This document shows positions 3,029-54,003 of a DNA stretch of 64,000 nt, piece by piece. The number at the start of each line of letters is the position of its first letter. Within the stretch, counting starts at the first letter, position 1. The DNA is from an uncultured bacterium (GTDB lineage Bacteria > Omnitrophota > Gorgyraeia > Duberdicusellales > 4484-171), in the NCBI GenBank assembly GCA_913050175.1, contig CAJXAF010000002.1, forward strand, positions 185-64,184, in the 5' to 3' direction. The notes below the pieces were generated by a model, which was not told where the DNA came from, did no database searches, and was given only the letters and a program-made list of their open reading frames with translations. A program made the translations under genes and the position numbers.

Positions 3029-3532
3029 CTACTTTAATTGAAAATCTTTATACTTCTCTAAGTACTTAATGATACCTTGACTACTTACTAGTTGCTTGCG
3101 GAAATTATCCCAGGGTTTGAAGTTGATAATTGTCTTAGAAGACTTTTTTTCAATCAACCCCTTACTTAAATCAACACTAAGATAATCGCTTTCTTTTAGT
3201 GACCTAGTATCAGCCTCAATTAAGGCTAAACCTATATTAAAAGCATTACGATAAAAAATGCGAGCAAAGCTTTTGGCGATAACACAAACTACACCAGCCT
3301 CTTTAATTACCCAGGGAGCCTGCTCCCGAGATGAACCCATGCCAAAATTCTCACCAGCGACAATAATTGACTTTTTAGGTATAAGTTCCTTGTAGAATCC
3401 CGGACGTATATCCTCCATTAGATATTGGGATAATTGCTTCATATCTGAAATTTTGAATTTATATCGTCCCGATATAATCCAATCAGTATTGATATTGTCA
3501 CCAAACTTAAAAACTTTTCCCTTTAAAATCAT
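3029..3532 (-). CDS. leuD: 3-isopropylmalate dehydratase small subunit (type 2 / archaeal-type LeuD, aconitase swivel domain)
   Basis: 167 aa. [15 protein letters not shown] and [15 protein letters not shown] motifs of the LeuD/aconitase swivel domain. Confidence 0.8.
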
Positions 3533-3543
3533 ATTTTTTGATA

Positions 3544-4593
3544 TTACAATTGCTCGAATTCAACTACACTCTTTACTTTAGTCAAAGCTGCCTCTTTAGT
3601 TATAACTCCCTTTTTATAGAGAGTTTTAAGAGCTTTATCCATAGTACGCATTCCGTATTGAGCACCCATCTGAAGCAAGGAAGGAATCTGGGCAATATCC
3701 CCTTCCCTGATTAAATTACGTATTCCCGGAGTAGATACCATAACTTCTGTTGATAAGACCCTGCCCTCTCCATCAGCCCGAGGTATTAAAATCTGCGACA
3801 TAACCCCTTGCAAGCACTCAGCCAGCTGAATAATTACCTGTCGCTGTTGGTAAGGTGGAAAAACATCGATAATGCGCTGGACAGTTTGCGGACAATCAGG
3901 TGTATGTAAAGTGGCTAAAACCAAATGTCCGGTTTCAGCTGCGGTTAAGGTTGTTGATATGGTATCTAGATCACGCATCTCTCCCACAACAATGACATCA
4001 GGATCTTGACGCAAAACCCTTTTTAAAGCCTCAGGAAAAGAGTGAGTATCAGAATATACTTCTCGTTGTTTGATAACACTCTTTTTATTGGTAAAAACAA
4101 ATTCAATCGGATCCTCAATAGTGACAATCATCTCACTACGATTAGTATTTATATATTCAACCATTGCTGCCATAGTTGTACTTTTTCCAGTACCAGTTGG
4201 ACCGGTACAGAGAACTAGGCCATTTGGTCTATTTAAAAAATCAAAGACAACATCGGGAAGACCCAATTGATCAATAGAGGGGATCTTCATAGGAACACGT
4301 CTGAAAGCTGCTTCAACATTGCCTTTTTGAAGGTGGATATTTACTCTAAAGCGGTCCATATTAGGAAGAGCAAAGGAAAAATCCAACTCCTTATCCCGCT
4401 CGAATATTGCTTTTTGCTCATCATTTAACATATTATAAATCAAAGTTTTTGAGCTTTGCTGAGTTAAGGGAGGGAATTCTGTAAGCTGGAGCTCTCCGTT
4501 AATCCTTATTACCGGGGGGTTACCAACTGACAAGTGCAGATCGCTGGCACGCTTGGCTTGAGTCAATTTAAGAAGAGTGTTCATGTCAACCAT
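3544..4593 (-). CDS. pilT: type IV pilus retraction (twitching motility) ATPase PilT
   Basis: 349 aa. Walker [11 protein letters not shown], Walker B/Asp box [12 protein letters not shown], His box ATLHT, PilT-specific GIRNLIREG and C-terminal GMRTMD. Confidence 0.9.
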
Positions 4594-4738: not shown

Positions 4739-5992
4739 TTATTTAAGATATTTTCTTGGATCGGTTATTGCCCCTTTAATGGCTGAAGCAACTACAGTGG
4801 CAACAGAAGCAAGGTATATATAGCTTTTAGGGTTGCCCATTCTCCCCTTGAAATTGCGATTAGCTGTTGAAATCGTAACCTCATTATCAGCCGGAACGCC
4901 TTGATGGGTTCCCACGCAAGGCCCGCAACCAACTGGTAAAACCACAGCCCCAGCCTCCATAAAAACTCTTATAAACCCTTTCTCCAGACTTCTGAGAAAA
5001 ATCTCTCTGGATGCAGGAGCTATAAAAAGTTTTGTATCTTTATCTATTCTTTTTGATTTTAACATTTTAGCAGCAATCTCTAAATCCTCAAGGCGTCCAT
5101 TAGTGCAAGTTCCCAAAAAGGCCTGATTAATCTTAGTGCCGGCTAAAGATGCAACCGGAGCGCCATTATCAACAGTATGAGGTTTAGCTAAATAAGGAGT
5201 TAACCTTGATACATCAAACTCGATAATTTTCTCATATTTACAATCGTTATCAGAGTAAGTTGGATTGCCCTTTTTAATCTTATACTTTTTTAAGTAGTCA
5301 AAAGTAACTTTATCAGGAGCAATAAAACCACACTTTGCACCAAACTCTATAGTCATATTTGTAATAGTACACCTGGCATCAAAGGACATTTTATCAATAG
5401 TGTTGCCGCTAAATTCAACTGACTTATAAGTAGCTCCGTTTGCACCTAGTTTATGTATTATATAAAGAATGACATCCTTACTATAAACTCCTTTTGGCAA
5501 TTTACCTTTAATAATAATTTTAAGAGTTTGGGGAACTTTAAACCAGTTTTTCCCAGTCATTAAAGCTATTGCCAAATCAGTTGAACCTACTCCAAAAGCA
5601 GCTACCCCTAAGGCTCCGGCAGTAGAAGTGTGGGAATCGGCACCGAGAATAAGTGCTCCCGGATAAGCAATTCCTGATTCAAGAACAAGTTGATGGGAAA
5701 TGCCACAGCCAACATCATAAATGCTATTTTTGTTTTTTTTAGTAAAAGACCTCATCCGAGAATGGATCCTTGAGACTCCCAGGTTAGGTGAGGGACTGCT
5801 ATGGTCTATAAACATTGAGTATTTTTTAGGAGTGATAAGTTTACCGTGGGCTTTTTGGATGCTATCTAAGACTAGTGAGGTCGTTCCATCTTGGGAAAAA
5901 CAATAATCGACTTTACAAATACCAACATCTTCTGCCTCTAGACTCTTCCCTGCATGCTTAGAGAGGATCTTCTCTATTATAGTTTTACCCAT
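4739..5992 (-). CDS. leuC: 3-isopropylmalate dehydratase large subunit (type 2, short archaeal-type LeuC; aconitase family)
   Basis: 417 aa. GISHQ, GADSHTST, GTCTNGR, CGPCVG and SxNRNFKGRMG aconitase-family motifs. Confidence 0.85.
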   Translation of the reverse strand: MGKTIIEKILSKHAGKSLEAEDVGICKVDYCFSQDGTTSLVLDSIQKAHGKLITPKKYSMFIDHSSPSPNLGVSRIHSRMRSFTKKNKNSIYDVGCGISHQLVLESGIAYPGALILGADSHTSTAGALGVAAFGVGSTDLAIALMTGKNWFKVPQTLKIIIKGKLPKGVYSKDVILYIIHKLGANGATYKSVEFSGNTIDKMSFDARCTITNMTIEFGAKCGFIAPDKVTFDYLKKYKIKKGNPTYSDNDCKYEKIIEFDVSRLTPYLAKPHTVDNGAPVASLAGTKINQAFLGTCTNGRLEDLEIAAKMLKSKRIDKDTKLFIAPASREIFLRSLEKGFIRVFMEAGAVVLPVGCGPCVGTHQGVPADNEVTISTANRNFKGRMGNPKSYIYLASVATVVASAIKGAITDPRKYLK

Positions 5993-16846: not shown

Positions 16847-17212
16847 TTATATTACCTCTGGAGCTAAAGATAAAATCTTACCAAACTTATCCCTTAGCTC
16901 TCTTGCAACTGGTCCAAAAACACGAGTTGCCCTAGGATTGCCCTGTTTATCGATTATGACACAGGCATTCTTATCAAATTTAATTGCTAAACCATCTTTT
17001 CGCTTAATCGGAAAACGAGTTCTTACGACAACAGCCCTAACGACTTCGCCCTTTTTAATCGGAGCATTAGGCATAGCCTCTTTAACGCTGGCATTAAAAA
17101 CATCACCAATATCAGCATGATCTTTATTCTTCTTACCAATAACACCGATAAAAGAAACTTTTTTTGCTCCACTATTATCAGCAACATCTAGCTTTGTTCT
17201 TAAATAAATCAT
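16847..17212 (-). CDS. rplN: 50S ribosomal protein L14
   Basis: 121 aa; [18 protein letters not shown]... Confidence 0.95.
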
Positions 17213-17448
17213 TTTACAATCTCTAAAAGTTGAAAATGGGTATCCTTCGAATAAGGTCGAGACTCAATTATTTTTACCCGGTCACCAACCTTTGCTTTAT
17301 TATCCTTATCATGGGCTTTAAATTTCTTTCTTTTTATTATTGATCTTTTATAGAGCTGGTGGGAAAATTTCATACCCACTAAAACAGTAATGGTTTTATC
17401 CATCTTGTCTGAAACAACTTTTCCCTCAATCACTTTACCTTTTTTCAC
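17209..17448 (-). CDS. rpsQ: 30S ribosomal protein S17
   Basis: 79 aa OB fold; [13 protein letters not shown].....H.LYKR. Confidence 0.9.
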
Positions 17449-17638
17449 TTTCCACCTCTTGCTTTTGCCCCATTATACTTTTAATCCGAGCTATATCGCG
17501 ACGGAATTGCTTAAAAAGATGCGGTTTCTCAACTCCGCTATGTCTTTTAAATTGCAACTCCATAAGCTGCTTATTAAGCTCCTCCATCTTTTCATTCAAT
17601 TCTTGGTTTGATAAACCACGTAAATCTTTTGCTTTCAC
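17435..17638 (-). CDS. rpmC: 50S ribosomal protein L29
   Basis: 67 aa helical; [32 protein letters not shown]. Confidence 0.85.
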
Positions 17639-17667
17639 TTATTACTCCTTCTACTCTTAATCCTAGA

Positions 17668-26692: not shown

Positions 26693-29600
26693 TTAAGATT
26701 TCTTAACCTCTATGTCCCGATATCGTTTCAACCCTGTTCCGGCTGGAATAAGGTGACCAACAATAACATTTTCTTTTAAACCTTGGAGATGATCTACTTT
26801 ACCAGCAGTTGCCGCATCAGCTAAAATACGAGTCGTCTCCTGAAAACTGGCAGCTGAGATAAAGCTCTTGGTGCTTAAAGAAGCTTTAGTTATTCCCAAA
26901 AGAAGTGGTGATGCTGTAGCCGGTTTCCCATTTTTCTTAATAATTTTTTCGTTTTCTTTTCTAAAATCCCACTTATCGACAGCTTCTCCCGGTAAAAAAT
27001 CACTATCTCCCGGATCTCCTATTTTAACCTTCTTAAGCATCTCGCGAATTATAACCTCAATATGCTTATCATTTATACGCACACCCTGAAGTCTATAGAT
27101 TTCCTGGATCTCATTAACTAGGTGTTCTTGCAAAACTTTATCTCCACAAACTCTCAATATATCCTGCAAAACTATCGGCCCCTCTATTAACTGCTGACCA
27201 GCAGCCACTTCATCACCCCTGTACACTATAGGATGCGACCCAACTGGAATAGCATACTCTCTTTTCATGCCAGTAGGGCTGCGCACGATAACTTTTCTTT
27301 CACCCTTTTCTTCAGCAAATTCAATAAACCCGTCGATCTCACTGATAACTGCCGGATTCTTTGGACGTCTTGCTTCAAAAAGTTCAGCCACTCTAGGTAG
27401 ACCACCAGTAATATCTCTGGTTTTTGCTACTAGGCGAGGGGTTTTAGCAATTACATCACCAGCCTCAACAACAGTACCTTCTTCAACCATAATATGGGCA
27501 CCGGTTGGTAAGGGGTAAAAGCCTATAACTTCATCCTTATCAGAAAGAATCAGGACTTGAGGATGGTAGTCACTCTTAAACTCAATTACAACTCTTTCTT
27601 TCCTTCCGGTTGTGATATTCATCTCTTCCTGAATGGTAATTTTGTTTATAATATCTTCATACTTGACCTTACCACCAACTTCAATAAGAATCGGTGAGGA
27701 GTAAGGATCCCAACGAACGAATATTTTATCTTTTTGTATTTCGCCATTATCAGGGATTAAAATCGAAGCACCTTGAGGTACTGGGTTTCTTTGCAATTCT
27801 ATTCCCCGAGGATCATTAACGCTTATCATTCCGTTTCTGTTAAGCACAACAAAGTTACGGCCTTTAGGAGCAATTTTTAAATTATGATATTTAACAATTC
27901 CCTTTTCTCTGGACTTGATGAAAGCTCTTTCAGCTACTCTTGAGGCAGTACCACCAATATGAAAAGTTCTCATAGTAAGCTGTGTTCCCGGCTCGCCGAT
28001 AGATTGAGCAGCAATTACACCTACTGCAGTGCCTATTTCAACCAATTTTCTGGTAGCTAAATTTCGTCCGTAACACTTAACACAACAACCTCGCTCTGAC
28101 TCACAAGTCAAAACGCTTCTAATTCTTATTTTCTCAAGACCTAATCTATCAATCTTGTCAGCTTTTCCGGCAGTAATAACATCGCCAGTTTTAATAATAA
28201 GTTCATCGCTAACAACATCAACAACGTTATCTAAGCCAACCCGGCCGACAATTCTTTCCTTTAAAGTAACAGCTACCTCTTCTCCCTCGACAATTTCTGC
28301 AACTGTGATCCCGTTAACAGTACCACAATCATCTTCAACTATAATTACCTCCTGAGCTACATCAACCAAACGTCTGGTAAGATATCCGGCATCAGCTGTC
28401 TTTAAAGCAGTGTCAGCCAAACCTTTCCTGGCGCCGTGAGTAGAGATAAAGTATTCTAAAACAGTTAGACCCTCCTTAAAGTTTGAAGTTATCGGAATTT
28501 CAATAATTTCACCGGAAGGTTTAGCCATAAGGCCTCTCATTCCGGCAAGTTGCCTAACTTGAGTTTTCGAGCCACGAGCTCCAGAATCAGCCATCATGAA
28601 TACCGGGTTAAATCGGCTCATATTAGCAAAAACAAGATCGGAAACTTTATCGTTTGTTCTAGTCCAAACGTCAATGATCTTATTGTGACGCTCTCTTTCA
28701 GTAATAATTCCTCGACGATACTGTTCCTCCACTTTAGCCAGTTCATTATTAGCTTCTTCAATGCAGGCGTGTTTTTGCTCAGGTATCTCAAGGTCATCGA
28801 GGGAAATACTTATGCCACCTAAGGTAGCGTACTCAAAACCAAGGTCCTTTATATCATCTAAGAGTTTAATTACGGCACTATGGCCAAACTTCTTATAAGA
28901 CTCACTAACAATTTCTGAAACCTGTTTTTTGCCTAAAGACTCATTGACATAACGAAACCCTTTAGGCAGTATTTGATTAAAAATAACTCTGCCGGTAGTT
29001 GTCTCAATTACTTTTCTTTCTCCATTATCCTGAATCCTGAGTTTAATTTTTGCATGTAAGTGCACTTCTTCATCCTGATAAGCAGTGAATACTTCCTGGG
29101 CGTCAGAAAAGAATATACCTTCACCCTTAACTTTTGGCATTTGGAGGGTGAGATAACGAAGACCAATTATCATATCCTGACTGGGAGCGATAACCGGTCT
29201 ACCATCAGAGGGTGAAAAAATATTATTTACTGAGAGCATAATTATTTTTGCTTCGGCTTGAGCCTCCAAAGAAAGGGGCAAATGAACTGCCATCTGGTCT
29301 CCGTCAAAATCAGCATTAAAAGCGGCACAAACCAAAGGATGAAGTTTAATGGCTTTACCTTCAACTAAGATCGGATAAAAAGCCTGTATACTTAGGCGGT
29401 GAAGAGTTGGAGCGCGGTTAAGCATTACCGGATGTCCTTGAATAACATCCTCTAAGATATCCCAAACCTCAACCTTTGCTCTTTCAACCATTCTTCTTGC
29501 ACCCTTTATCGTATGAACAAAACCTTTTTCTCGTAATTTCTTGATTATAAATGGCTCTACCAACTCTAAGGCCATCTGTTTGGGAATGCCACATTGATAT

Positions 29601-30658
29601 AGTTTTAAGTCTGGACCAACAACTATAACACTTCGTCCAGAATAATCGACTCGCTTACCTAAAAGATTCTGTCGAAAACGACCCTGCTTTCCCTTAAGCA
29701 TGTCCGATAAGCTTTTTAAAGGACGATTCTGAGGACCAACAACCGGTCGCCCATGACGACCGTTCTCAATGACTGCATCAACTGCTTCCTGAAGCATCCT
29801 TTTCTCATTACGTATAATAATATCAGGAGCACCTAAAGAAATTAATTTCTTTAAACGGTTATTTCTATTGATTACCCTTCTATATAAGTCGTTTAAATCG
29901 CTGGAAGCGAATCTCCCTCCTTCTAAGGGAACTAAAGGTCTTAGATCAGGCGGAATTATTGGCAAAGAATCAAGTATCATCCAGTCACATTCATTGCCAG
30001 AACGTCTCATGTCTTCAACAATCTTAAGTCTCTTAAGGAGCCTAGTATTAACACTTGCCTTACCCTTTTCTAAACTCTTTCTAATAGCTTTGCTTACCTT
30101 AGGCAGATCAACTTCTTGCAGCAATTGCTTCACTGCTTCAGCGCCTATTTCAGCTTTAAAGTCAGAACCATGCTCCTCAATGCCTTTTCTATACTCCTTT
30201 TCACGCAGTAACTGCATCCTCTTAAAAGGTGTAGTACCGGGATCAATAACTACATACTCTTCATAATATATTACTTTCTCTAACTGCTTAATACTTAGAT
30301 CTAGGAGAGCTCCGATTCGGGAAGGGAGTACTTTAAAAAACCAAATGTGAGTAACTGGTGCAGCCAAATCAATATGCCCCATGCGCTGCCTGCGTACTGA
30401 TGAGTGCAGAACTTCAACTCCACAACGATCACACTTTGTACCCTTGAACTTAATACCTTTTAACTTACCGCAATGACATTCCCAATCTTTAGCTGGACCA
30501 AAGATTCTTTCGCAAAAAAGTCCATCCTTTTCCGGCTTTAAAGTACGGTAATTTAAAGTCTCGGCTTTTTTTACTTCTCCTGAAGACCAGTTTCGAATAA
30601 CATCTGGTGCTGCTAACTTTATTGTAATTCGATCAAAAAATGCACCTTCTTCCAGCAT
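26693..30658 (-). CDS. rpoC: DNA-directed RNA polymerase subunit beta-prime
   Basis: 1321 aa; Zn-finger CHCGK...CDRCGVEV, catalytic [12 protein letters not shown], trigger loop and bridge helix regions. Confidence 0.97.
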
Positions 30659-30673
30659 ATTTTCTCCTATATT

Positions 30674-33600
30674 TTATTTTTTAAGCAGTTCTTTTTCTTT
30701 TTTGTCTTTGTCTTTTGGTTTATCTTTGATCTTGTCTTTCTCGGCTCGGACATCAAGACATAGGCCTTGCAACTCTTTTACTAAAACATTAAATGACTCA
30801 GGAACTGAAGGTTGAAATTTCTGCTCTCCCCGAACAATTGCCTCATAAATCCTTGTCCTTCCTTCAACATCATCACTCTTAACAGTAAGCATCTCCTGTA
30901 AGGTAAAAGCTGCTCCATAGGCTTCCAGAGCCCAAACTTCCATCTCTCCAAATCGCTGTCCGCCAAACTGAGCTTTACCACCCAGAGGTTGCTGGGTTAT
31001 AAGCGAATAAGGCCCTATGGCTCGAGCATGAATCTTATCATCAATCATGTGTACTAATTTCATAATATACATATAGCCTACACCAGCTTGCTGGCCAAAA
31101 GACTTACCAGTGTAACCATCGTAGAGAGTAACTTTTCCGTTTTCCGGTAAATTAGCTTCTCTTAATAATTTTTTAATATCCTCTTCCTTAGCGCCGTCAA
31201 AAACCGGCGAATATGTGCGCAAACCTAATTTCTTAGCAGCCCAACCAAGGTGCATTTCCATTAATTGGCCGACATTCATTCGCGAAGGAACGCCTAAAGG
31301 ATTAAGAATGATATCAACGGTTGAGCCATCTTCAAGATAAGGCATGTCCTCTTCCGGCAAAATCTTTGATATAACTCCTTTGTTTCCATGTCTACCGGAA
31401 AGCTTATCTCCAGCGGAGATTTTACGTTTCATGGCTACAAATGCAACCACTTTCTTTAAAACGCCGGCTTTTAACTCGTCACCTTTTTTTATCTTTGCCA
31501 ACTCTAACTCTTTATCAATAGCCAGAGAGTTTAAGCGTTCGTCATAAATATTTCGGATCGCTCTTAATTCTTCGTTGTTTTCATATTCAGCAGCTGTTAT
31601 CTTCTTTTTTTCTTTACCGGTAATTGCAGTCATACGTTTTTTGCATTCAGTTTCAAGTAGCTGACGCTCTTCCTCATAATACTGCTCAATCTCCTGCATT
31701 CGACGAAGCTCTTCAGTCTTCTCTTTTTTAGAGCGTCTTCCTTTATCCTTTCTTTGAAAGACTTCAGCATTGATTACTACTCCGTGCACACCGGGAGGAA
31801 CGCGTAGTGAGGTATCCTTAACATCAGCTGCCTTTTCACCGAATATTGCCCGGAGTAACCTTTCTTCGGGAGATAGTTCTTTCTCGCTTTTCGGAGTAAC
31901 TCTACCGACTAAAATATCATCAGGACCGACCTCAGCTCCAATTCTAATTATTCCACCATCATCCAAATTACTTAAGGCTTCCTCACTGACATTAGGTATG
32001 TCTCTAGTTACTTCCTCATTACCAAGTCTGGTTTCTCTAGCTTCAAGATCAAACTTTTCCACATGAACAGAGGTTAATATATCATCCTTTACCAGGCGTT
32101 CATTTATAATTATTGCATCTTCAAAGTTATAGCCTCTCCAAGGCAAGAAAGCTACGAGTAAATTAGTACCTAAGGCTAATTCCCCACCCCTAGTTGCCAT
32201 TCCATCAGCTAAAATTGTACCTTTCTTTACTTCATCGCCCTTTTTAACCAAAGGCCTCTGGTTGACACAAGTATCAGCATTGGAACGGTAAAATTTCTTC
32301 AACTTATAAGAGTAGTTATCCACCTTAACAGTTGAACCGTCAATCTCAGTAACTTTACCTGACTCTTTAGCAACAACCATGATAACGCTGTCTCGGGCAA
32401 CCTTTTCTTCAATTCCTGTTCCTACTAATGGTTCTTGAGGGAAGAGAAGAGGTACTGATTGGCGCTGCATGTTAGAACCCATAAGAGCCCGGTTTGCATC
32501 ATCATGCTCTAAGAAAGGTATCAAAGAAGCTGAAACTGAAATTATCTGCTGAGGAGAAATATCCATGTATTCTAGTTTTCGTGGTTTTATTTTGGGGAAT
32601 TTGCCTTTATAGCGGGCATATATTTCTTTATCCTTAATTTTACCATCGGGATCAATGTTGGCAGTCACCTGGGCGATAACTCTATTTTCTTCCTCATCTC
32701 CCATTAAAAAATCTATTTTATCTAAAACCTTACCATCCTCTACTTTTCTATAGGGAGTAGTTAAAAAACCCAAGGGGTTGATTTTTGAGTAGGTAGTTAA
32801 AGAAGACAATAAGCCTATGTTTGCACCTTCCGGCGTCTCAATCGGACAGATCTTTCCGTAGTGTGTAGGATGCACATCCCTAACTTCAAAACCAGCTCTT
32901 TCCCGGGAAAGACCTCCCGGACCCATTGCTGACAGCCTACGTTTATGGGTAATTTCTGCTAAAGGGTTTGTCTGGTCCATAAATTGAGAAAGAGGTGATC
33001 GTCCGAAAAAATCTTGAATTTGAGTTGAGAAGGCGCGGGAATTTATTAGGTGTTGAATTGAAAAATCATTGGAAGAAATCAATGAATAGCGCTCCATAAA
33101 CGTCCGTTCAACTCTTAATAAGCCAATACGAACTTGGTGCTGGAGTAACTCACCAATAAGTTTGACTCTTCTATTAGCTAGATGGTCAATGTCATCGATA
33201 TCCCGCTTTCCAGCTTTAATATGTAGCAAAGTTTTTATAATCTCAATCACTGTAGTCAAATCAAGGGTCCGCTTACTTAAAGCAAACTCCATGTTTAACT
33301 TCTTATTTATTAGATACCTGCCGACTTTACCTAAGTCATATCTGCGGCCATCAAGAAACATCCTTCGAAAGACCTCTTTAGCTGCTTCCAAAGTTATTGG
33401 CTCAGTAGGACGCATCTTTTTATAAAAATCTAAATAAGCTTCTTCAGCGCTACTAGCAGAATCCTTCTTTGCAGTATTAATTATCTCTGGATAGGGCTTG
33501 TCAGAAAAGTGATTGTATATATCGTCATTACTGGAAAGGCCCAGTATTCTTAAGATCTGAGTAGCAGGAAATGTTTTACGCCGGTCAATGATAGCGGTAA

Positions 33601-34141
33601 GTGTATCGTTAATATCAGTTCTAAATTCAAGCCAATAGCCTCGATAGGGTATTATCCGGGCAAAATAAAGACGTTTGCCGGTTGGGTGAGCTTCCTCCTC
33701 AAAAAATACTCCCGGAGAACGCTGAAGCTGGCTAATTACTGATCTCTCATCACCATTTATAACGAAAGCGGCCCCATCAGTCATTAAAGGCAGATCGCCA
33801 AGGTAAATTTCCTGTTCCTTTATATCATGAGCCGGTCCGGATAAACGTAAACGTACATGTAAAGGAGCAGCGTAAGTCTGAGATCGCCTTTTGCATTCAT
33901 CAACACTATATCGCGGTCGGCTTAAATTATAAGAAATAAATTCTAAGCGATATTCCTTATCCGGGCTTTCCATAGGAAAGACTTCCTGCATAATTTCCTG
34001 CAGACCTATAGCCTTTCTCTTCTCAGGTAAGATATCCAACTGCAAAAATTCTTTAAATGAGCGTAGTTGATGCTCAAGAAAATTTGGCATGTTGACTGAC
34101 TTTTTTATTTTGGCAAAGGATAACTTTTTAAGTTTTCCCAA
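30674..34141 (-). CDS. rpoB: DNA-directed RNA polymerase subunit beta
   Basis: 1155 aa; SFAKI...LEVQ N-terminus and rifampicin cluster region. It starts with TTG (34141-34139) 6 nt after a strong AGGAGG Shine-Dalgarno. Confidence 0.97.
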   Translation of the reverse strand: MGKLKKLSFAKIKKSVNMPNFLEHQLRSFKEFLQLDILPEKRKAIGLQEIMQEVFPMESPDKEYRLEFISYNLSRPRYSVDECKRRSQTYAAPLHVRLRLSGPAHDIKEQEIYLGDLPLMTDGAAFVINGDERSVISQLQRSPGVFFEEEAHPTGKRLYFARIIPYRGYWLEFRTDINDTLTAIIDRRKTFPATQILRILGLSSNDDIYNHFSDKPYPEIINTAKKDSASSAEEAYLDFYKKMRPTEPITLEAAKEVFRRMFLDGRRYDLGKVGRYLINKKLNMEFALSKRTLDLTTVIEIIKTLLHIKAGKRDIDDIDHLANRRVKLIGELLQHQVRIGLLRVERTFMERYSLISSNDFSIQHLINSRAFSTQIQDFFGRSPLSQFMDQTNPLAEITHKRRLSAMGPGGLSRERAGFEVRDVHPTHYGKICPIETPEGANIGLLSSLTTYSKINPLGFLTTPYRKVEDGKVLDKIDFLMGDEEENRVIAQVTANIDPDGKIKDKEIYARYKGKFPKIKPRKLEYMDISPQQIISVSASLIPFLEHDDANRALMGSNMQRQSVPLLFPQEPLVGTGIEEKVARDSVIMVVAKESGKVTEIDGSTVKVDNYSYKLKKFYRSNADTCVNQRPLVKKGDEVKKGTILADGMATRGGELALGTNLLVAFLPWRGYNFEDAIIINERLVKDDILTSVHVEKFDLEARETRLGNEEVTRDIPNVSEEALSNLDDGGIIRIGAEVGPDDILVGRVTPKSEKELSPEERLLRAIFGEKAADVKDTSLRVPPGVHGVVINAEVFQRKDKGRRSKKEKTEELRRMQEIEQYYEEERQLLETECKKRMTAITGKEKKKITAAEYENNEELRAIRNIYDERLNSLAIDKELELAKIKKGDELKAGVLKKVVAFVAMKRKISAGDKLSGRHGNKGVISKILPEEDMPYLEDGSTVDIILNPLGVPSRMNVGQLMEMHLGWAAKKLGLRTYSPVFDGAKEEDIKKLLREANLPENGKVTLYDGYTGKSFGQQAGVGYMYIMKLVHMIDDKIHARAIGPYSLITQQPLGGKAQFGGQRFGEMEVWALEAYGAAFTLQEMLTVKSDDVEGRTRIYEAIVRGEQKFQPSVPESFNVLVKELQGLCLDVRAEKDKIKDKPKDKDKKEKELLKK

Positions 34142-48720: not shown

Positions 48721-48793
48721 TTAAAAAACATGGACCGAAGCGGATTCAAACCGCCGACCTCCTCGTTGCGAACGAGGCGTTCTCCCAACTGAA
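48721..48793 (-). tRNA. tRNA-Ala (anticodon CGC)
   Basis: Reverse complement GGGCTGGTAGTTCAGTTGGGAGAACGCCTCGTTCGCAACGAGGAGGTCGGCGGTTTGAATCCGCTTCGGTCCA. The cloverleaf has a G3:U70 pair, A73 discriminator and anticodon loop TTCGCAA. The acceptor stem closes only with three G:U pairs, and the T-loop reads TTTGAAT (U at position 56). Confidence 0.7.
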
Positions 48794-48976
48794 CTACCAG
48801 CCCAAAAGCTTACAAAATAAAAATAAGGATTCCATCATATTTTGACAAAGATATCAAAACATGTCAAGAAAGACAAATAAACAGGCGTAAAAAATAAGGA
48901 TAGACTTCAAAAGGCAGGTTTTCAATAATCAAAAATATTCAAAACCTAAGCAAAACTCAATTGGATAATAAGTGGA

Positions 48977-49297
48977 TTAAGGCTGATAGTTTACTTGTAC
49001 GTCAACCTGATTTGTACCCGATGGGCCTATACCAGGCGTTACGGTTATGGCAACATCACCATTGGGAATACCGTTTAAATTCGCAGCCGGTGCCCAAGTT
49101 GGAGCAGCAACTCCTCTTCGCAATTCTTCCAAGGTATGCACCATAGCAGCCCTGGCTGTAAAGACTCCTGCGATTCTTCTTATTTTATGTTCAGCAATTC
49201 GGGATTCCTGAGTTAAAAGATATAAAGCAACTAAAGCTAGAGTGAAAACAACAATTAATATTCCAATTACAACTATTAAAATAACACCCTTTTTCAC
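48977..49297 (-). CDS. small membrane-anchored protein with PilX_N-like N-terminus (putative type IV pilus minor pilin-like)
   Basis: 106 aa; MKKGVILIVVIGILIVVFTLALVALYLL...ESRIAEHKI...AAMVHTLEEL resembles the PilX N-terminal domain pattern, and the Ala/Pro/Gly-rich C-terminus gives the gene locally elevated GC. A 61-aa ORF on the opposite strand overlaps it; the minus-strand reading is preferred. Confidence 0.4.
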   Translation of the reverse strand: MKKGVILIVVIGILIVVFTLALVALYLLTQESRIAEHKIRRIAGVFTARAAMVHTLEELRRGVAAPTWAPAANLNGIPNGDVAITVTPGIGPSGTNQVDVQVNYQP

Positions 49298-49527
49298 TTC
49301 TCCTCCTCTTTTGCTAAATCAGCGTCTTTTTCCCGTAAGCTAACTCTATAAGTATCATTTTGGCATTCTACCAAAACATGCCCTTCGCGGGCCAACCACC
49401 CAAGACTCATAAGAATTAAATCTTTAGATCTGTCAACGCCACCGATAAGAGTATCTAAGCCAACTATACCATTTTTGTCTAAAAAATGCCATATTTCACC
49501 TGCTATTATGCCTATCTCTGTAATCAT
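49294..49527 (-). CDS. small winged-helix (DUF2582-like) protein
   Basis: 77 aa; MITEIGIIAGEIWHFLDKNG...DLILMSLGWLAREGHV pattern typical of small wHTH proteins; 4-nt overlap with the downstream gene. Confidence 0.4.
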   Translation of the reverse strand: MITEIGIIAGEIWHFLDKNGIVGLDTLIGGVDRSKDLILMSLGWLAREGHVLVECQNDTYRVSLREKDADLAKEEEK

Positions 49528-49542
49528 TATTGCCTATTTCAC

Positions 49543-49791
49543 CTAAGAACTTGTTATTTTTGGCTTTTGGTGCGATTTCCTATTTATGCTACCACATAAA
49601 GGGCAGTGCCAAAATTCTGACAAAAGAGAAACAAAATACACCGAAGAACATAACTCGCACTGCCTTTTCTCCAGTTGTATTTCCTTCTTTAATTTAGTAA
49701 GGCGTATGTTGTTTACATATTCGAGTAAAAAGGCAAGGAAAACACAGAAACTTAATGAAAAACCAATAAAAGATGCAAGGTTAATCTTCAT
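49543..49791 (-). CDS. small membrane protein with C-terminal Zn-ribbon
   Basis: 82 aa; one N-terminal TM helix followed by CELC...x17...CPLC. Confidence 0.35.
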   Translation of the reverse strand: MKINLASFIGFSLSFCVFLAFLLEYVNNIRLTKLKKEIQLEKRQCELCSSVYFVSLLSEFWHCPLCGSINRKSHQKPKITSS

Positions 49792-49793
49792 TT

Positions 49794-50351
49794 TTATTTT
49801 ACTACCCCATCAACTTTTGTCCAGAAAAATTTATCATTTAGGAAGAAACCAGCACTATGAATGTGCTCTTGAAAATGTAAATTTCCTGAAGAATTAGCTG
49901 TCAGCTTTTGGGGGTAAGTAAACAAAACCTTGCCTCTTTTGGAAACAAAAGCTTTATATGATACCTTCTCTTCCTCAAGAGGAAGAAATGGCATCCTATC
50001 TTCCCACAAATAATAAAATTGAGGTTTAAATTCTCTTAAATTATCGTTTTTCCGGAGATTATTGGTTTTTTTGTGTAAAGCTACTTCTTGATTAAAAAAA
50101 GAATTAACCTTGCCGGTAATAGCTTTAGAAAAATACTTATAGCGTAATTTGTCTGAGGAAAAAAAGGCTTCTTTTGGTAAAGTTTTTACTTTTTCTTTAC
50201 TTAAAAGATCTCTCTTGTTAAGAATATCAGGCCAGACATATATTGCAGGTGTACGTTTAGCGTCAATCTCAAACCTAAAAAATGAAAAAATAAAGACATG
50301 GACAAGAAAAGAAAAAAACAAAACTATCAATAAAGATCTTCTCTGTCTCAT
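49794..50351 (-). CDS. N-terminally membrane-anchored hypothetical protein at the TonB/TolA position of the ExbBD operon
   Basis: 185 aa; single N-terminal TM segment (LLIVLFFSFLVHVFIFSFF) then a soluble domain with no recognisable TonB C-terminal or TolA signature; immediately downstream of exbD. Confidence 0.35.
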   Translation of the reverse strand: MRQRRSLLIVLFFSFLVHVFIFSFFRFEIDAKRTPAIYVWPDILNKRDLLSKEKVKTLPKEAFFSSDKLRYKYFSKAITGKVNSFFNQEVALHKKTNNLRKNDNLREFKPQFYYLWEDRMPFLPLEEEKVSYKAFVSKRGKVLFTYPQKLTANSSGNLHFQEHIHSAGFFLNDKFFWTKVDGVVK

Positions 50352-50426
50352 ACTTACAATTCCCTAACACTGTATATAATTTTTATCCTTAAATATCCCT
50401 GTATTTATCAAAAAAACTATATGATA

Positions 50427-50822
50427 TTAATCGTAAGTAGTTGCAATGCCAATTTTCTCTATGCCGACTTTTTTGCTAATATCCCAGACGCTAACAACAG
50501 TGCCTAAGCTGGCATCTCTATCTGCTTTGATAAAAATAGAATCAAATCCTTTGTTTTGCAAAACTTCCTCCACTTCCTTAATTGTTAGAGGCTTAGAATC
50601 TACATACATAATATCTTCGCTGGAAACAACTATCGTCAATGATCTTGAATCCAACTCCTCCGACGTCACAGCTTTAGGAAGTTTTACATTGATTCCCGGA
50701 ATTACAACAAAGCTAGATGTTAGCATAAAGAATACTAAAAGGAGAAAGACACAATCAATTAAGGGGACAATATCAATCTGATGCAGACCAGCTTCAACTT
50801 TTGCACTTTTTCTAAATTTCAT
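50427..50822 (-). CDS. biopolymer transport protein ExbD/TolR
   Basis: 131 aa; N-terminal TM with the conserved Asp (IDIVPLIDCVFLLLVFFM) and a periplasmic domain. Confidence 0.8.
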   Translation of the reverse strand: MKFRKSAKVEAGLHQIDIVPLIDCVFLLLVFFMLTSSFVVIPGINVKLPKAVTSEELDSRSLTIVVSSEDIMYVDSKPLTIKEVEEVLQNKGFDSIFIKADRDASLGTVVSVWDISKKVGIEKIGIATTYD

Positions 50823-50863
50823 CTATTTCACCTACTAGTAAATGTTTATTTTTTTATGACCCT

Positions 50864-51502
50864 TTATTGGTCTGCATACCTACTCTGAGGTAAGACTTCC
50901 AGCAACTCAGTTGCACCGCGCTCTGACTCTAAAGTAGCAAGATTGACTTTATGAACAAAAAAGTTATACATGATATAACTAGGTATAGCAACACAGAGGC
51001 CAGCAACTGTAGTAAGAAGCGCTACCCAAATACCGTCAGCTAAATCAGTAGGATTTACCATGCCAACCGTAACAGTCTTTTGGGCAATTGTACGAAAACA
51101 AATCACCAGTCCGACAACAGTACCAAGAAGACCGAGAAGTGGTGAAACATGAGAAATAGTGCTTAAGAAATTAAGATTTTTCTCAAGCTTTGGAACTTCA
51201 TATAGAGAAGCATTTTCCATAGATTCACGAATAACATCTTTTGTCTCTTCATAACGAATAAGGCCTGATTTTAAAATATTAGTAGCGTAGAAAGGGTTCT
51301 TCTCGCATAGATCAATTGCTTCGGTTATATTATTTTTGCGAACAAAATCAATGATTTGCGATATAACTGACTGAACGTTTACCTTAACACTCAAATAAAA
51401 AAATATTCTTTCAAAAATTATAGTGACAGAAAATACTGAACATAAAAAAATTGGCAGCATTAGCCACATTAATGAACTGTTCTTAGATATCAATTCCCAC
51501 AT
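50864..51502 (-). CDS. MotA/TolQ/ExbB proton-channel family protein
   Basis: 212 aa; three TM helices with the conserved C-terminal GLLGTVVGL...A motif of TolQ/ExbB. Confidence 0.8.
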   Translation of the reverse strand: MWELISKNSSLMWLMLPIFLCSVFSVTIIFERIFFYLSVKVNVQSVISQIIDFVRKNNITEAIDLCEKNPFYATNILKSGLIRYEETKDVIRESMENASLYEVPKLEKNLNFLSTISHVSPLLGLLGTVVGLVICFRTIAQKTVTVGMVNPTDLADGIWVALLTTVAGLCVAIPSYIMYNFFVHKVNLATLESERGATELLEVLPQSRYADQ

Positions 51503-51561
51503 ATTAACCTCCTTAAAAAAATATAACTTATGCTAACAAAGTGAACCTAAATCCGATTTCT

Positions 51562-54003
51562 TTAACGGACTGATTTTAGTTTCTCTAGTCTCGCTGCTGC
51601 TATCTTAGACTCTTTTACGCCTAAATCTATTATCTTTTGATAAATTTTTTTTGCCTCTGTGAAATTAGCTTCCTTTTCATAAATTCTGGCTATACGAAAG
51701 TAAGACCTGGTTTGATAATACTGCGCATCCTTGGAATATTGTTGACCGCTATCAGGCGAAAACATATAAATAATTTTAAAGTATTCATCAATGGCCTCTT
51801 TGCTCCTGCCGACTTTCTCAAGAGAAGTGCTGTAGGAAAATATTATATCCGGAGAATCAATCCCTTCATCAATAGCTTTTTTAAAGAAATTTATGGCTTG
51901 ACGATGATCTTTCATCTCTTTAAGTAAGTTTGCCTTATTCACTAAGGCAATCTTTGCTATCGGCGAAGATGAATTAATGAGTTCGTTATATATCTTTAAA
52001 GCCTCTACGCTTCTGCCCTTTTGAGCCAAAATTTCAGCTAAATAAAGCTTTCCTTTTATTGCTAACGCCGAATGTGTCTCAACTAACTTGCTAAAGTAAT
52101 CCTTAGCCTTATCCAAATCTCCTATAGACCAATAAAGGTGACCTAAAGAAAGTAAGGCTTCATTCCCCCAGGAATCGTTACCGAATTCATTAACAATCCT
52201 TAGATAATGTTTTTCTGCATCAGCATAATTGCCTTCCTTCTCCTCTAGACCACCTAAATATAACCCCACTGAAGGCCGATATTCTGATTCCGGATAAAGC
52301 TCAAGAAAAGAATTCCATGTTTTTTTAGCGTCTACATTCATCTCCAGATTAAAATAAGTATTACCAATATCAATATAAATAAATTCTTCAATATCTTTAT
52401 CCTTATTTTTTCCTGAGATTGATTTAAAAAGCTCTAATGCTTTAAGAAAGTTTCCCTCGTTAAAAAAACACTTACCATAAAGATAACGGGCCTTATAAAT
52501 ATAGCTATTCTGAGGAAACTTCTCTATAAAATCCTCTAAAAGATTCTTACTTTCAGAGTAATCTTCTTTTGAAAAATAACTTACGGCAAGGTAGTATTGT
52601 GATTGGGGAAGAAGTTTAGAGTCAGGAAATTTTTTTGCCAGATTACGAAGAGCTAAGGAAGCGCTTTTAAGATCCTTTTTTCTTAAAAAAGTAACGCCGA
52701 TTTGAAATTGTATATAATCAGCATATATAGTATTGGGGTAGCTCTTGATAATTTCATTATAAACATCTAAGGCTTGATCATATTGAGCTGTTTCTAAATA
52801 AGTGTCTGCTATTTGAATTTGGGCGCTGATTTTTACCAACACATTATCAGTAGCCTCAAAAGCACTCTCAAAGCCCTCAATTGCTTCTTTAAACTTCCCA
52901 CTTTTTAGATAGCACCAACTCAAACCATATTTAGCCTTATTAATTACATTGGCTTGTTCTTTTTCGTCAAATCTACTTAAAATATCTCTATAGGCAAAAA
53001 TTGAATCATTTAGCCTTCCCATCTCATAAAGTAAGTCAGCTTTGTTTAAATAGATAATAGGGATGAACTTACTCTGGGGGTAAGTTCTTATAAAAATATC
53101 AAAAGTATCCAGGGCTTCTATATGATTACTACTTCTAAAATAGAATACACCTTGAGAAAAAAGACGCAGCTCTTTATCCCTGATTTTATCTATATTTAAC
53201 TTAGCCTCCATTTTATTGTCAATTTCAATATAAGAAAAACCCAAACCCTGATTTATTAAATCCTCTAATTGGATACTAGGCCTCTCAAGCAAGGCCCGCT
53301 TGTGGTTATCTACTGCTAAAGCGTAGTCACCCTCTGCATACGCACCTTCGCCAAGATAGAAAAACGCCTGGGCCCTTAAGCTACCATTAGGAAAATCTTT
53401 AAGATATTGAAGACCTGACGACTTAAGAAGAGAGTTTTTTCTATTGTCAAAACAATATTTAATGAGTTTTAAATATGTGCTGTCAATTAAGTCAGTATCT
53501 TCGGACTCATCAATGATTGATCTTAATAGCTCTATGGCTTCATCTTCATTGCCTAAGGCTAAGTTATTATTAGCAATCAAATAATAACTCCACAGTTTAA
53601 ATTTTGAACTAGGATAGTGCGATATAATTTTCTCAGCATACTCAAGAGATTTTGTAAAGTTTTTACCCTTAAAATGGATTGTTGCCAGCCAGTAGTATAC
53701 CTCCTCTAAGAGTTCATGCAGATATTTGTTGGTTTCTAATTTATTGAGTACTGTTAATGCCTTAGGATAATCCTCGTTATTAAAATGGCACTTTGCTATA
53801 TAAAGTTGCGCTTCATAAAAAAGAGGACTGTCAGGGTATTCCTTGAGAAACTTTTCCAAAAGTGAAAGCGAGGCATCGTAGAAGCCGTCTGAGTAAGCTT
53901 TAACCGCAACATAAAAGCGCTCCTCTCCTTTTTCAAAGCAAAAACAACTATTGCTAATTAGTAATATTAACCCCGTTAGAATAACTATAATTTTTTTTCG
54001 CAT
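51562..54003 (-). CDS. secreted tetratricopeptide-repeat protein
   Basis: 813 aa; N-terminal signal peptide (MRKKIIVILTGLILLISNSCFC) followed by >15 TPR-like repeats (recurring A..Y..G..Y..A...F pattern). Confidence 0.8.
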   Translation of the reverse strand: MRKKIIVILTGLILLISNSCFCFEKGEERFYVAVKAYSDGFYDASLSLLEKFLKEYPDSPLFYEAQLYIAKCHFNNEDYPKALTVLNKLETNKYLHELLEEVYYWLATIHFKGKNFTKSLEYAEKIISHYPSSKFKLWSYYLIANNNLALGNEDEAIELLRSIIDESEDTDLIDSTYLKLIKYCFDNRKNSLLKSSGLQYLKDFPNGSLRAQAFFYLGEGAYAEGDYALAVDNHKRALLERPSIQLEDLINQGLGFSYIEIDNKMEAKLNIDKIRDKELRLFSQGVFYFRSSNHIEALDTFDIFIRTYPQSKFIPIIYLNKADLLYEMGRLNDSIFAYRDILSRFDEKEQANVINKAKYGLSWCYLKSGKFKEAIEGFESAFEATDNVLVKISAQIQIADTYLETAQYDQALDVYNEIIKSYPNTIYADYIQFQIGVTFLRKKDLKSASLALRNLAKKFPDSKLLPQSQYYLAVSYFSKEDYSESKNLLEDFIEKFPQNSYIYKARYLYGKCFFNEGNFLKALELFKSISGKNKDKDIEEFIYIDIGNTYFNLEMNVDAKKTWNSFLELYPESEYRPSVGLYLGGLEEKEGNYADAEKHYLRIVNEFGNDSWGNEALLSLGHLYWSIGDLDKAKDYFSKLVETHSALAIKGKLYLAEILAQKGRSVEALKIYNELINSSSPIAKIALVNKANLLKEMKDHRQAINFFKKAIDEGIDSPDIIFSYSTSLEKVGRSKEAIDEYFKIIYMFSPDSGQQYSKDAQYYQTRSYFRIARIYEKEANFTEAKKIYQKIIDLGVKESKIAAARLEKLKSVR

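Follow-up and report, generated by a model that had tools for sequence, protein, structure and literature searches.

The seven genes between positions 48977 and 54003 of the 64-kb stretch of DNA analyzed here (the window), from an uncultured Omnitrophota bacterium, raise the question of what an ExbB/ExbD stator pair serves when the TonB/TolA slot is filled by a cryptic 185-aa protein and three further small genes follow. The answer that we favor, with a confidence only somewhat better than even, is that this is a phylum-typical core Omnitrophota locus in which two modules are joined, a Poc/TonB3-like or Tol-like motor and a pilus-associated pair. All seven open reading frames were found on the minus strand, exactly where a preliminary description had placed them. 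The intergenic gaps from the TPR gene to the 106-aa gene were determined to be 59, 41, 75, 2, 15, and -4 nt, so the spacing of 0-60 nt with a 4-nt overlap that had been described is correct for most junctions, one gap being 75 nt. On the upstream side, the TPR gene is separated from the end of uvrA by only 17 nt. The window is entirely minus-strand, with 76 ORFs, 95% coverage, a median ORF gap of 15 nt, and 87% of the gaps at 75 nt or less; the tight co-directional spacing of the seven genes is therefore no more than the genome background.

The earlier identification of the TPR, ExbB, and ExbD proteins was confirmed by Pfam profile searches. The 813-aa TPR protein (51562..54003, minus strand; TPR_6, 5.7e-61; YfiO, 5.1e-24) has a hydrophobic signal or anchor at the N-terminus and contains many YbgF/CpoB-like and BamD-like TPR units. 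The NCBIfam model TIGR02795 (tol_pal_ybgF) is matched over nine stretches with 211.5 bits (cut-off, 90.1). The protein is probably a periplasmic scaffold, and its gene is found upstream of the module in nearly all relatives. The 212-aa protein (50864..51502, minus strand) is an ExbB/TolQ-type proton-channel stator subunit with three TM segments (PF01618, MotA_ExbB, 1.6e-29). Its best NCBIfam match is TolQ, at full length (2.2e-27), followed by ExbB (1.1e-14), both under the equivalog cut-offs, and the solved structures of TolQ (8odt, 3.1e-10) and ExbB (5sv0, 7.3e-10) are equally close. The 131-aa protein (50427..50822, minus strand; PF02472, 3.1e-27) is an ExbD/TolR-type stator subunit that retains the conserved TM aspartate (D23 in P-L-I-D). 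It is nearer to the solved ExbD (7ajq_F, 1.1e-10, with 'plidcvflll' aligned over 'pfidvmlvll') than to TolR (9e-4).

These assignments bear on an alternative in which the locus encodes a Tol-Pal-like system for envelope maintenance or division. The TPR protein would be a giant CpoB-like coordinator, the stator subunits TolQ and TolR, and the 185-aa protein a short TolA analogue, while the small genes downstream would have no relation to the system and be kept beside it by frozen synteny. The full-length TolQ match and the YbgF/CpoB score argue for this assignment, as do the core character of the unit, its setting among housekeeping genes, and the lack of a nearby TonB-dependent receptor. However, the Tol and Exb equivalog scores are all far under their cut-offs, the ExbD subunit resembles ExbD more closely than TolR, and the long helical domain II of TolA is missing from the 185-aa protein. 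Genes for tolB, pal, or a TonB-dependent receptor were absent within ~10 kb on either side in the Pfam-annotated locus (L001), in agreement with what had been reported for the adjacent genes. The Tol-Pal-like reading also leaves unexplained why the zinc-ribbon gene is nearly always directly behind the TonB-like gene and why a separable pair of small genes lies beside the pilus genes, both described below. We regard it as possible but rather unlikely.

The 185-aa protein (49794..50351, minus strand) has zero matches in Pfam or NCBIfam, and the PF03544, PF13103, and TolA profiles match none of the 65 members of its family. The description of a TonB slot without a TonB C-terminal or TolA signature is thus borne out at the level of sequence. 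Like TonB and TolA, the protein is encoded after exbB-exbD and has a single N-terminal TM anchor with an SxxxH motif (S14 and H18, kept in at least 90% of the 65 members). The linker of ~100 aa is not Pro-rich. In the AF2 model the C-terminal domain adopts the beta-beta-alpha-beta fold of a TonB C-terminal domain (pLDDT 84-87), similar to the solved TonB and TolA domains (9ddz, 1xx3, 2grx, and 1tol). In a second clade the slot is occupied by a family with invariant S13 and H17; hhalign matches its N-terminal anchor to that of the window-type family with a probability of 80% (E 1.3e-5), the alignment being limited to the N-termini. The positional orthologue in one relative (L084) matches TonB_C (9.2e-5), and no sequence profile ties the window-type C-terminal domain to TonB_C. 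Because of the conserved SxxxH anchor and the modeled fold, we assign the 185-aa protein as a predicted divergent TonB/TolA-type energy transducer. It differs from E. coli TonB and TolA in its length of only 185 aa, in having neither the Pro-rich spacer of TonB nor the long helical spacer of TolA, and in its family motifs P-x-IY-x-W, YLW, and DKFFWTK.

A divergent TonB could also belong to an ordinary TonB-ExbB-ExbD energizer of nutrient uptake, with the transporters encoded elsewhere and the small downstream genes unrelated. The SxxxH anchor and the solved ExbD as the closest structure to the ExbD subunit are consistent with this proposal, and tonB is often unlinked from its receptors, as is established for E. 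coli. However, an adjacent transporter was found in none of the ~100 loci examined, and the 185-aa protein has no Pro-rich spacer. A complete Omnitrophota genome (L021) encodes a separate conventional TonB_C protein (1.7e-7), which makes the cryptic protein an extra paralogue. A survey of Omnitrophota genomes found no canonical TBDR/sus import architecture flanking the giant-protein genes that it examined (bioRxiv 10.64898/2026.06.07.730766). Nutrient uptake is, in our judgment, an improbable role. The preliminary description had opposed its own reading to that of a divergent TonB beside small genes not conserved in relatives; the SxxxH motif and TonB-type fold agree with the first part, but the small genes are conserved.

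The 82-aa protein (49543..49791, minus strand) spans the membrane once and carries a Cys4 zinc ribbon at its C-terminus, as had been proposed, and the CxxC-x15-CxxC motif is kept in 15 of 15 distinct loci. The ribbon is predicted to be cytoplasmic from the positive-inside rule. The gene starts 2 nt past the stop of the 185-aa gene, and the two may be translationally coupled. The gene is left out by several gene callers. It comes directly after the TonB-like gene in ~41 of the 44 clusters that could be evaluated. Zinc ribbons are joined to the inner membrane in two characterized systems: Myxococcus GltJ (ZnR-GYF-TM-TonB_C), in which one protein of a TolQR-driven machine unites a zinc ribbon with a TM helix and a TonB-C domain, and Caulobacter ZitP, a membrane zinc-ribbon regulator of pili (PMC11135422). 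The likeness is an architectural analogy, with no sequence homology claimed: a ribbon on the cytoplasmic side would be linked across the inner membrane to a TonB-C-type machine, as in GltJ, or to the biogenesis of pili, as in ZitP. In the window a separate polypeptide carries the ribbon, in the opposite order, TM first and ribbon last, and the GYF domain of GltJ is absent.

The last two genes form the second module. The 77-aa winged-helix protein (49294..49527, minus strand) was verified as DUF2582 (PF10771, 45 bits with the cut-off at 24.2, 1.2e-11; PDB 2l02, 3.6e-6). It has no signal peptide, and its gene is the best conserved of the set (68% mean column identity). Of 3166 homologues, the best 120 are at least 55% identical, most of them above 60%, and the named sources of these 120 are all Omnitrophota. 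The 106-aa protein (48977..49297, minus strand) is encoded with a 4-nt overlap with the DUF2582 gene. Its reported resemblance to PilX_N stands at the family level, where 13 of 20 members match PF14341 (best 1.4e-7) and the L023 orthologue does so at 5.2e-5, but not for the window copy, which gave no match at E <= 1. The canonical G/FTLxE prepilin signal that had been put forward as a check is also absent. Instead, the N-terminus (MKKG-VILIV) has Lys-Gly followed by hydrophobic residues and no Glu5, like GspK and PilX, the Glu5-less minor (pseudo)pilins that are tip subunits of the T2SS and type IVa pili. A PilX_N-type N-terminal helix and Lys/Arg-Gly before the hydrophobic residues are further features in common with GspK and PilX, and the AF2 model consists of a 60-residue helix and a beta-hairpin (pLDDT 84.6). 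Unlike GspK and PilX, the family members are 106-147 aa rather than ~190-330 aa, the globular part of the modeled 106-aa protein is the hairpin only, residue -1 is G, A, or S and not an invariant Gly, and the putative mini-pilin gene, which forms a pair with a winged-helix gene, precedes the pilM side. In relatives it is encoded beside a cluster supplying Glu5 major and minor pilins with the canonical G/FTLLE signal.

The gene order was surveyed in 84 non-redundant loci (clusters), with the number evaluable differing for each question. The order obtained was UvrA, TPR, [ExbB-ExbD-TonB-like-ZnR], [DUF2582-PilX-like], with a complete type IV pilus cluster coming next in 37 of 57 evaluable clusters; the PilX-like gene follows DUF2582 in 59 of 69. 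The pilus/T2SS-like cluster of relatives contains HTH_17, PilMN, PilO, a PilP-like protein, an STN-bearing secretin (STN domain in L023, 3.3e-5), PilB, PilC, and Glu5 pilins. The DUF2582 and PilX-like genes are present without ExbBD in 13 clusters, where the TPR gene abuts DUF2582 directly; TonB-like and ZnR genes are present without ExbBD in 5. Since 13 of the pilus-linked clusters have no motor block at this locus, the pilus cluster needs no motor in cis. Thus, the small genes are conserved beside exbBD as had been anticipated, but they are two separable pairs and not one accessory set, because TonB-like and ZnR travel with the motor and the other two occur without it. In the clade of the window, tRNA-Ala(CGC) (48730..48804, minus strand) and rsmE follow the PilX-like gene in place of the pilus cluster. 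All 12 window-type loci have this tRNA directly behind the PilX-like gene and none of the 13 pilus-type loci has it, so that it marks a rearrangement breakpoint. The functionally unrelated uvrA is as constant beside the TPR gene as the module neighbors are; the adjacency of motor and pilus genes could therefore be frozen synteny and is weak evidence in this phylum.

The locus keeps its position across the phylum, beside uvrA, rsmE, and pilus genes and with no variable-island setting. The unit is core and syntenic, neither accessory nor defensive, and the earlier view of it as the most accessory-looking stretch does not hold. Nor is the 106-aa gene compositionally atypical: with a GC content of 0.411 it is matched or exceeded by 14.7% of all 321-nt windows, GC3 is 0.262 (typical or low), and the excess at codon positions 1 and 2 arises because the protein is rich in Ala, Gly, Val, and Pro. 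These data also bear on the suggestion that the stator pair drives an accessory module or one for defense against phages (Zorya-like or similar), in which the four small proteins would be the effectors. A stator pair is indeed followed by small, conserved, uncharacterized proteins, and PADLOC returned weak ZorA matches (2.8e-4). However, these matches of ~18 bits are confined to the shared MotA/ExbB channel region and no other PADLOC family matched; a nuclease, ATPase, or other effector is absent, the codon-position GC is native, and the locus is fixed across the phylum. We consider a defensive function extremely improbable.

In the two-module reading, the TPR, ExbB, ExbD, 185-aa, and 82-aa proteins would make up a Ton/Tol-type proton-motive-force motor. 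The stator, with its TM aspartate intact, would energize the 185-aa transducer, whose SxxxH anchor would dock in the stator and whose periplasmic beta-beta-alpha-beta head may hold a partner through strand addition. The membrane partner of the transducer would be the 82-aa protein, with its ribbon in the cytoplasm, and the TPR protein would serve as a periplasmic scaffold. The DUF2582 protein and the mini-pilin, a candidate Glu5-less tip or initiator subunit, would form the second module, placed directly upstream of a complete pilus cluster in most Omnitrophota and separated from it at the tRNA-Ala breakpoint in the clade of the window. Most probably, the motor would support a type IV filament or secretin machine. 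The gene content, homologies, modeled fold, and synteny counts are observations, whereas the physical interactions and the connection of the motor to the pilus are inferred.

The closest precedent is the Pseudomonas aeruginosa PocA-PocB-TonB3 system, made up of paralogues of ExbB, ExbD, and TonB that are needed to assemble type IVa pili and to place them at the pole. Type IVa pili depend on PocAB-TonB3, the N0 domain of PilQ resembles the signaling domain of a TonB-dependent receptor, and TonB3 has been proposed to contact the N0 domain of the secretin (PMC5285504). In Pseudomonas, and as we propose here, the ExbB/ExbD/TonB-type trio is associated with a type IV pilus instead of a nutrient receptor, and the proposed TonB3-N0 contact is paralleled by the STN-bearing secretin in the adjacent clusters of relatives. 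The Pseudomonas link is genetic and its genes are dispersed, whereas here the link is genomic adjacency in relatives only. The Omnitrophota transducer has no detectable TonB_C sequence signature, and the TM zinc-ribbon partner, giant TPR protein, and DUF2582 protein are present here and not in the Poc system. Within the window no pilus assembly genes are adjacent to the seven-gene unit. An orphan gene for a 349-aa PilT/PilU-family type IVa pilus retraction ATPase (3544..4593, minus strand; HMM match 2.7e-67; TIGR01420, 469.6 bits, cut-off 319.1) was found between leuD and leuC, which indicates that the organism keeps type IV pilus components.

Seven head-to-tail ORFs were found on the minus strand, with coordinates exactly as reported in the preliminary description. 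From the upstream end, these encode a TPR protein (51562–54003, 813 aa), ExbB (50864–51502, 212 aa), ExbD (50427–50822, 131 aa), a membrane-anchored protein in the position expected for TonB or TolA (the slot protein; 49794–50351, 185 aa), a transmembrane protein with a Cys4 zinc ribbon and no family match in Pfam or NCBIfam (ZnR; 49543–49791, 82 aa), a winged-helix protein (49294–49527, 77 aa), and a PilX-like protein (48977–49297, 106 aa). The successive gaps from the TPR gene to the PilX-like gene are 59, 41, 75, 2, 15, and –4 nt, and uvrA ends 17 nt from the TPR gene on the upstream side. This tight, co-directional spacing had previously been taken as the sign of a single unit. It is uninformative because the entire window is equally dense and essentially all genes of the 64 kb lie on the minus strand: 76 ORFs cover 95% of the sequence, and the gaps have a median of 15 nt and do not exceed 75 nt in 87% of cases. 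Promoter-like matches (28 versus 19 ± 5 in shuffled sequence) and terminator-like matches (5 versus 3.3 ± 2) were not above expectation. The sequence derives from a Tara Oceans mesopelagic metagenome scaffold, and all named homologues are from Candidatus Omnitrophota. Elsewhere in the window, ORFs of 1321 and 1155 aa at 26693–34141 and a run of small ORFs at ~8–22 kb suggest, by their sizes only, rpoBC and ribosomal-protein operons.

The gene order was determined across the phylum by using the winged-helix protein, DUF2582, as the query, which returned 80 further metagenome loci. With HMMs for all components, 84 non-redundant clusters were then tabulated; one locus (L014) was left out downstream of ZnR, where the sequence is a masked run of N. 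Relatives with 30–46% identity in the slot protein retain the order ExbB, ExbD, slot protein, ZnR, DUF2582, and PilX-like. Immediately upstream of DUF2582, the genes for ExbD, the slot protein, and ZnR were found in 35 clusters, plus locus L022; the TPR gene abuts DUF2582 directly, with no room between them, in 13 clusters; and the slot protein and ZnR are present without ExbBD in 5 clusters. Loci L007/L017, L015, L034, L048, and L070 carry the slot protein, ZnR, DUF2582, and PilX-like genes without TPR, ExbB, or ExbD. The PilX-like gene directly follows DUF2582 in 59 of the 69 evaluable clusters. The next genes encode, by Pfam assignment in the relatives, an HTH_17 protein, a PilM/N fusion, PilO, a PilP-like protein, a secretin, a PilB-type ATPase, a PilC-type platform protein, and several pilins in 37 of 57 evaluable clusters, and rsmE in 17 of the 57. 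A PilX-like gene is present in 35 of the 37 clusters where the pilus genes follow DUF2582.

From these tallies upstream and downstream of DUF2582, the phylum-typical array is uvrA, TPR, [ExbB-ExbD-slot protein-ZnR], [DUF2582-PilX-like], and [type IV pilus/T2SS-like cluster]. The four small genes that had been described behind exbBD are thus conserved in that position among relatives, and they form two separable pairs rather than one set. In the loci with a pilus cluster (L022, L023, L027, L031, L043, and others), a gap of constant size (140–290 nt) separates the PilX-like gene from HTH_17-pilM and may serve to regulate the pilus operon. The HTH_17 protein in these loci is 62–65 aa long and excisionase/MerR-like, and its gene overlaps that of the PilM/N fusion. 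In two high-GC lineages (L094, 3906–4259; L098, 1433–1813), DUF2582 follows ExbB-ExbD with no slot protein, ZnR, or PilX-like gene, and a ~120-aa ORF, putatively CutA-like, comes next, before pilM.

ExbB matches MotA_ExbB (PF01618) at 1.6e-29 (102.6 bits versus a gathering score of 22.9) and ExbD matches PF02472 at 3.1e-27 (95.6 versus 25.4 bits), with D23 of ExbD aligned to the transmembrane aspartate of solved ExbD. Among the NCBIfam models, ExbB is nearest to TolQ, yet far under every equivalog threshold. In comparison with solved structures, ExbB is equidistant from TolQ and ExbB, and ExbD is nearer to ExbD than to TolR. These comparisons demonstrate a complete ExbB/ExbD stator with the catalytic aspartate, and their scores do not separate the Tol from the Ton subfamily. 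The TPR protein matches many TPR families in Pfam and the BamD, PorW, and PilW/Tgl TPR models, and its score against TIGR02795 (YbgF/CpoB), 211.5 bits versus a cut-off of 90.1, is summed from 9 repeated stretches of the 813 residues. A Tol-like role in the envelope is a serious rival explanation for such a motor, and the proximity of ExbB to TolQ and the YbgF/CpoB match are what it can draw upon; neither tolB nor pal was found within ~10 kb of the locus or in the flanks of the relatives. It was also noted by eye that TM3 of the window ExbB (residues ~160–170) reads G-I-W-V-A-L-L. In both ExbB and TolQ of E. coli this helix carries G-x-x-E-A-L with a conserved glutamate, which may be replaced by valine here.

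The preliminary description found no TonB or TolA signature in the slot protein, and for sequence profiles this is correct. No Pfam or NCBIfam match was obtained at E ≤ 1; TonB_C (PF03544), TonB_2 (PF13103), TolA, and other informative Pfam models are absent from all 65 aligned family members at the same threshold; and the family profile found no solved structure among the PDB sequences. It does not hold for architecture and fold. The SxxxH anchor motif defines TonB (S16/H20) and TolA (S18/H22) of E. coli, and S14 and H18 of the slot protein are at least 90% conserved in the 65-sequence alignment. In the predicted model, residues 2–24 form the N-terminal helix and the C-terminal region adopts the β-β-α-β fold of the TonB/TolA domains. 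The intervening residues 26–125 contain 6 prolines and no repeat and are modeled as low-confidence coil; this spacer is neither Pro-rich, as in TonB, nor a long Ala/Lys-rich helix, as in TolA. The protein is named TonB-like rather than TonB because the profile and spacer do not correspond to TonB or TolA, while the anchor and fold do. A word-indexed search for homologues returned only 2 proteins, yielding one relative; an exhaustive HMMER search returned 79 representatives (clusters at 50% identity), nearly all of 180–200 aa. The gene adjoins exbB-exbD in most loci (35 clusters with ExbD versus 5 without). A whole family of TonB/TolA-like transducers escapes sequence searches of Pfam, NCBIfam, and the PDB.

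In the pilus-linked clade, proteins of 205–235 aa are encoded between ExbD and ZnR. Their S13 and H17 are invariant, they share a C-terminal KRKISSGNLExDLL motif, and they are again without a Pfam match. Alignment of the two families with hhalign (probability 80%, E 1.3e-5) covered only the anchor and juxtamembrane region and did not reach the C-terminal domains, for which homology between the clades is at most putative. The protein at the same position in a distant high-GC lineage (L084) gave the only TonB_C match for this position, at 9.2e-5 and below the cut-off. Taken together, the anchors and this match support a TonB-like assignment for this position across the clades. Plain TonB-dependent uptake is a lesser rival explanation. 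A conventional TonB_C protein (17010–17639, 209 aa; PF03544, 1.7e-7) is encoded ~7 kb on the downstream side of the cryptic module in the complete genome CP070684.1 (L021), so that the two kinds coexist in at least some Omnitrophota.

The start of the ZnR gene lies 1–3 nt past the stop of the TonB-like gene in relatives (2 nt in the window), and all four cysteines are kept in 15 of 15 distinct loci. The zinc ribbon is predicted to be cytoplasmic by the positive-inside rule. The gene is absent from the ENA/NCBI gene sets of the window's own locus and of L003, L005, and L021 and is called by JGI; in this way annotation systematically misses a phylum-wide conserved gene. The identification of the 77-aa winged-helix protein, which is of a cytoplasmic type, as DUF2582 was confirmed by PF10771 (1.2e-11, 45 bits versus a gathering score of 24.2) and by PDB 2l02 (3.6e-6). 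There are 3166 homologues, the best 120 of which are at least 55% identical, most of them above 60%. DUF2582 is much the best conserved of the seven proteins (68% mean column identity), and nothing about it was found in the library searched.

The resemblance of the 106-aa protein to PilX_N was found to hold for the family and not for the window copy, which has no match to PilX_N (PF14341) at E ≤ 1 and none to N_methyl or any other family of Pfam or NCBIfam. Among its relatives, 13 of 20 match PilX_N (best 1.4e-7), and the L023 protein matches below the cut-off, at 5.2e-5. Conservation is high over the first 60 residues (MKKGVVLVVVIG...TQESRIAEHKIRR), in which Lys-Lys and then Gly (Ala or Ser in some members) precede a hydrophobic segment that lacks Glu at +5. 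The window copy reads MKKG|VILIV, with Gly4 present and Glu5 absent, and the complete class III signal peptide (a short, basic leader with Gly at –1, then a hydrophobic helix with Glu5) is not found in the PilX-like proteins. In the pilus-type loci, the neighboring pilins and three minor pilins carry the canonical G|FTLLE with Glu5, and the PilX-like protein never does. GspK and PilX, which are tip subunits, are normally without Glu5, so its absence makes membership among the pilins less likely without being disqualifying, and a Glu5-less protein beside Glu5-bearing pilins is the pattern of these tip subunits. A Foldseek search of the model against the PDB gave nothing at E < 1. Judged by its sequence, the protein is PilX_N-like at the family level and without a canonical prepilin signal. 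Its gene had also been called compositionally atypical. The GC content is 0.411, and the excess is confined to codon positions 1 and 2 (0.55 and 0.42); GC3, at 0.262, is among the lower values of the locus, and 14.7% of the windows of the same size are as GC-rich or more so. The last two values rule out a foreign origin.

The suggestion of an accessory or defence module was not borne out, as the seven genes are a core syntenic unit. PADLOC, applied to all seven proteins, returned only a weak similarity to the channel region of ZorA (best E 2.8e-4, at most 17.8 bits) and nothing meaningful for the other six. The unit instead belongs to the core and is a lineage-specific form of Ton-type motor, whose coupling to a type IV filament system is at least a genomic one. 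In Omnitrophota, the motor, ZnR, the winged-helix protein, the Glu5-less mini-pilin, and the full pilus cluster with its STN-bearing secretin (STN domain, 3.3e-5) make up one conserved array. The literature yielded no account of an array of ExbBD with pilus genes in Omnitrophota, and nothing of relevance on ExbB of the phylum. Its members are nanobacteria with a predatory or episymbiotic way of life and probably rely on hosts or prey, a contact for which pili are leading candidates. The interest would be greater if the coupling of motor and pilus were physical.

Such a unit would work like a Ton/Tol/Poc motor. The stator would draw on the proton gradient to move the TonB-like arm, and the head of this arm would bind a partner in the periplasm or outer membrane by strand addition. 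The STN/N0 domain of the pilus secretin is the most promising candidate, given the precedent of PocA-PocB-TonB3: type IVa pili of Pseudomonas aeruginosa depend on this system, and a contact of TonB3 with the secretin N0 domain has been suggested for it (PMC5285504). The zinc ribbon, predicted to be cytoplasmic, might anchor DUF2582 or signal to it, and GltJ and ZitP are precedents for a zinc ribbon on machines of this kind (PMC11135422). We consider it conceivable, though rather improbable, that these parts form an integral proton-motive-force motor of the Omnitrophota type IV filament machine, with the TonB-like arm pulling on or gating the secretin STN/N0 domain, the ribbon holding or releasing DUF2582, and the mini-pilin acting as the initiator of the filament. 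With an integral motor, the connection between Poc/TonB3 and pili would be present here in hard-wired form, and the link from ribbon to DUF2582 would couple the state of the envelope to pilus gene expression or assembly. uvrA adjoins the TPR gene as faithfully as the motor adjoins the pilus genes, and frozen synteny may therefore account for neighborhoods in this phylum. In Pseudomonas there is as yet no explanation of how motors of the PocAB-TonB3 type act on type IV pili, and the natural variants that lack single blocks of the array make the question of motor and pilus approachable.

The window belongs to a minority clade in which the PilX-like gene is followed by tRNA-Ala(CGC) and rsmE. The tRNA gene (48730–48804, minus strand), the only Rfam match, lies in the 267-nt gap between the PilX-like gene and rsmE. 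All 12 of 12 window-type loci have it behind the PilX-like gene, versus 0 of 13 pilus-type loci, and it therefore marks a clade-defining rearrangement breakpoint. Locus L020 has a distant TonB-like protein of the window type with the pilus cluster still attached. No pilus assembly genes were found in the 64 kb of the window, which on its own is a core Ton/Tol-like module with the orphaned head of a pilus locus, and not an accessory or defence island. An orphan type IVa retraction ATPase of the PilT/PilU family (3544–4593, minus strand; TIGR01420, 469.6 bits versus a cut-off of 319.1) indicates that the organism keeps parts of a type IVa pilus. This gene is wedged between leuD-like (3029–3532) and leuC-like (4739–5992) genes, 45 kb from the PilX-like gene. 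A promoter-like TTGACA-17-CAAAAT with a TG extension (48867–48839) precedes the tRNA-Ala gene. In the window, rsmE comes directly after this tRNA; in several relatives a Memo/AMMECR1 fusion gene (a component of the AmmeMemoRadiSam type) is located between the two (L015, 2885–4387; L016, 9649–11154; L018, 9795–11279; L021, 10509–11708; and L007, 8593–9366).
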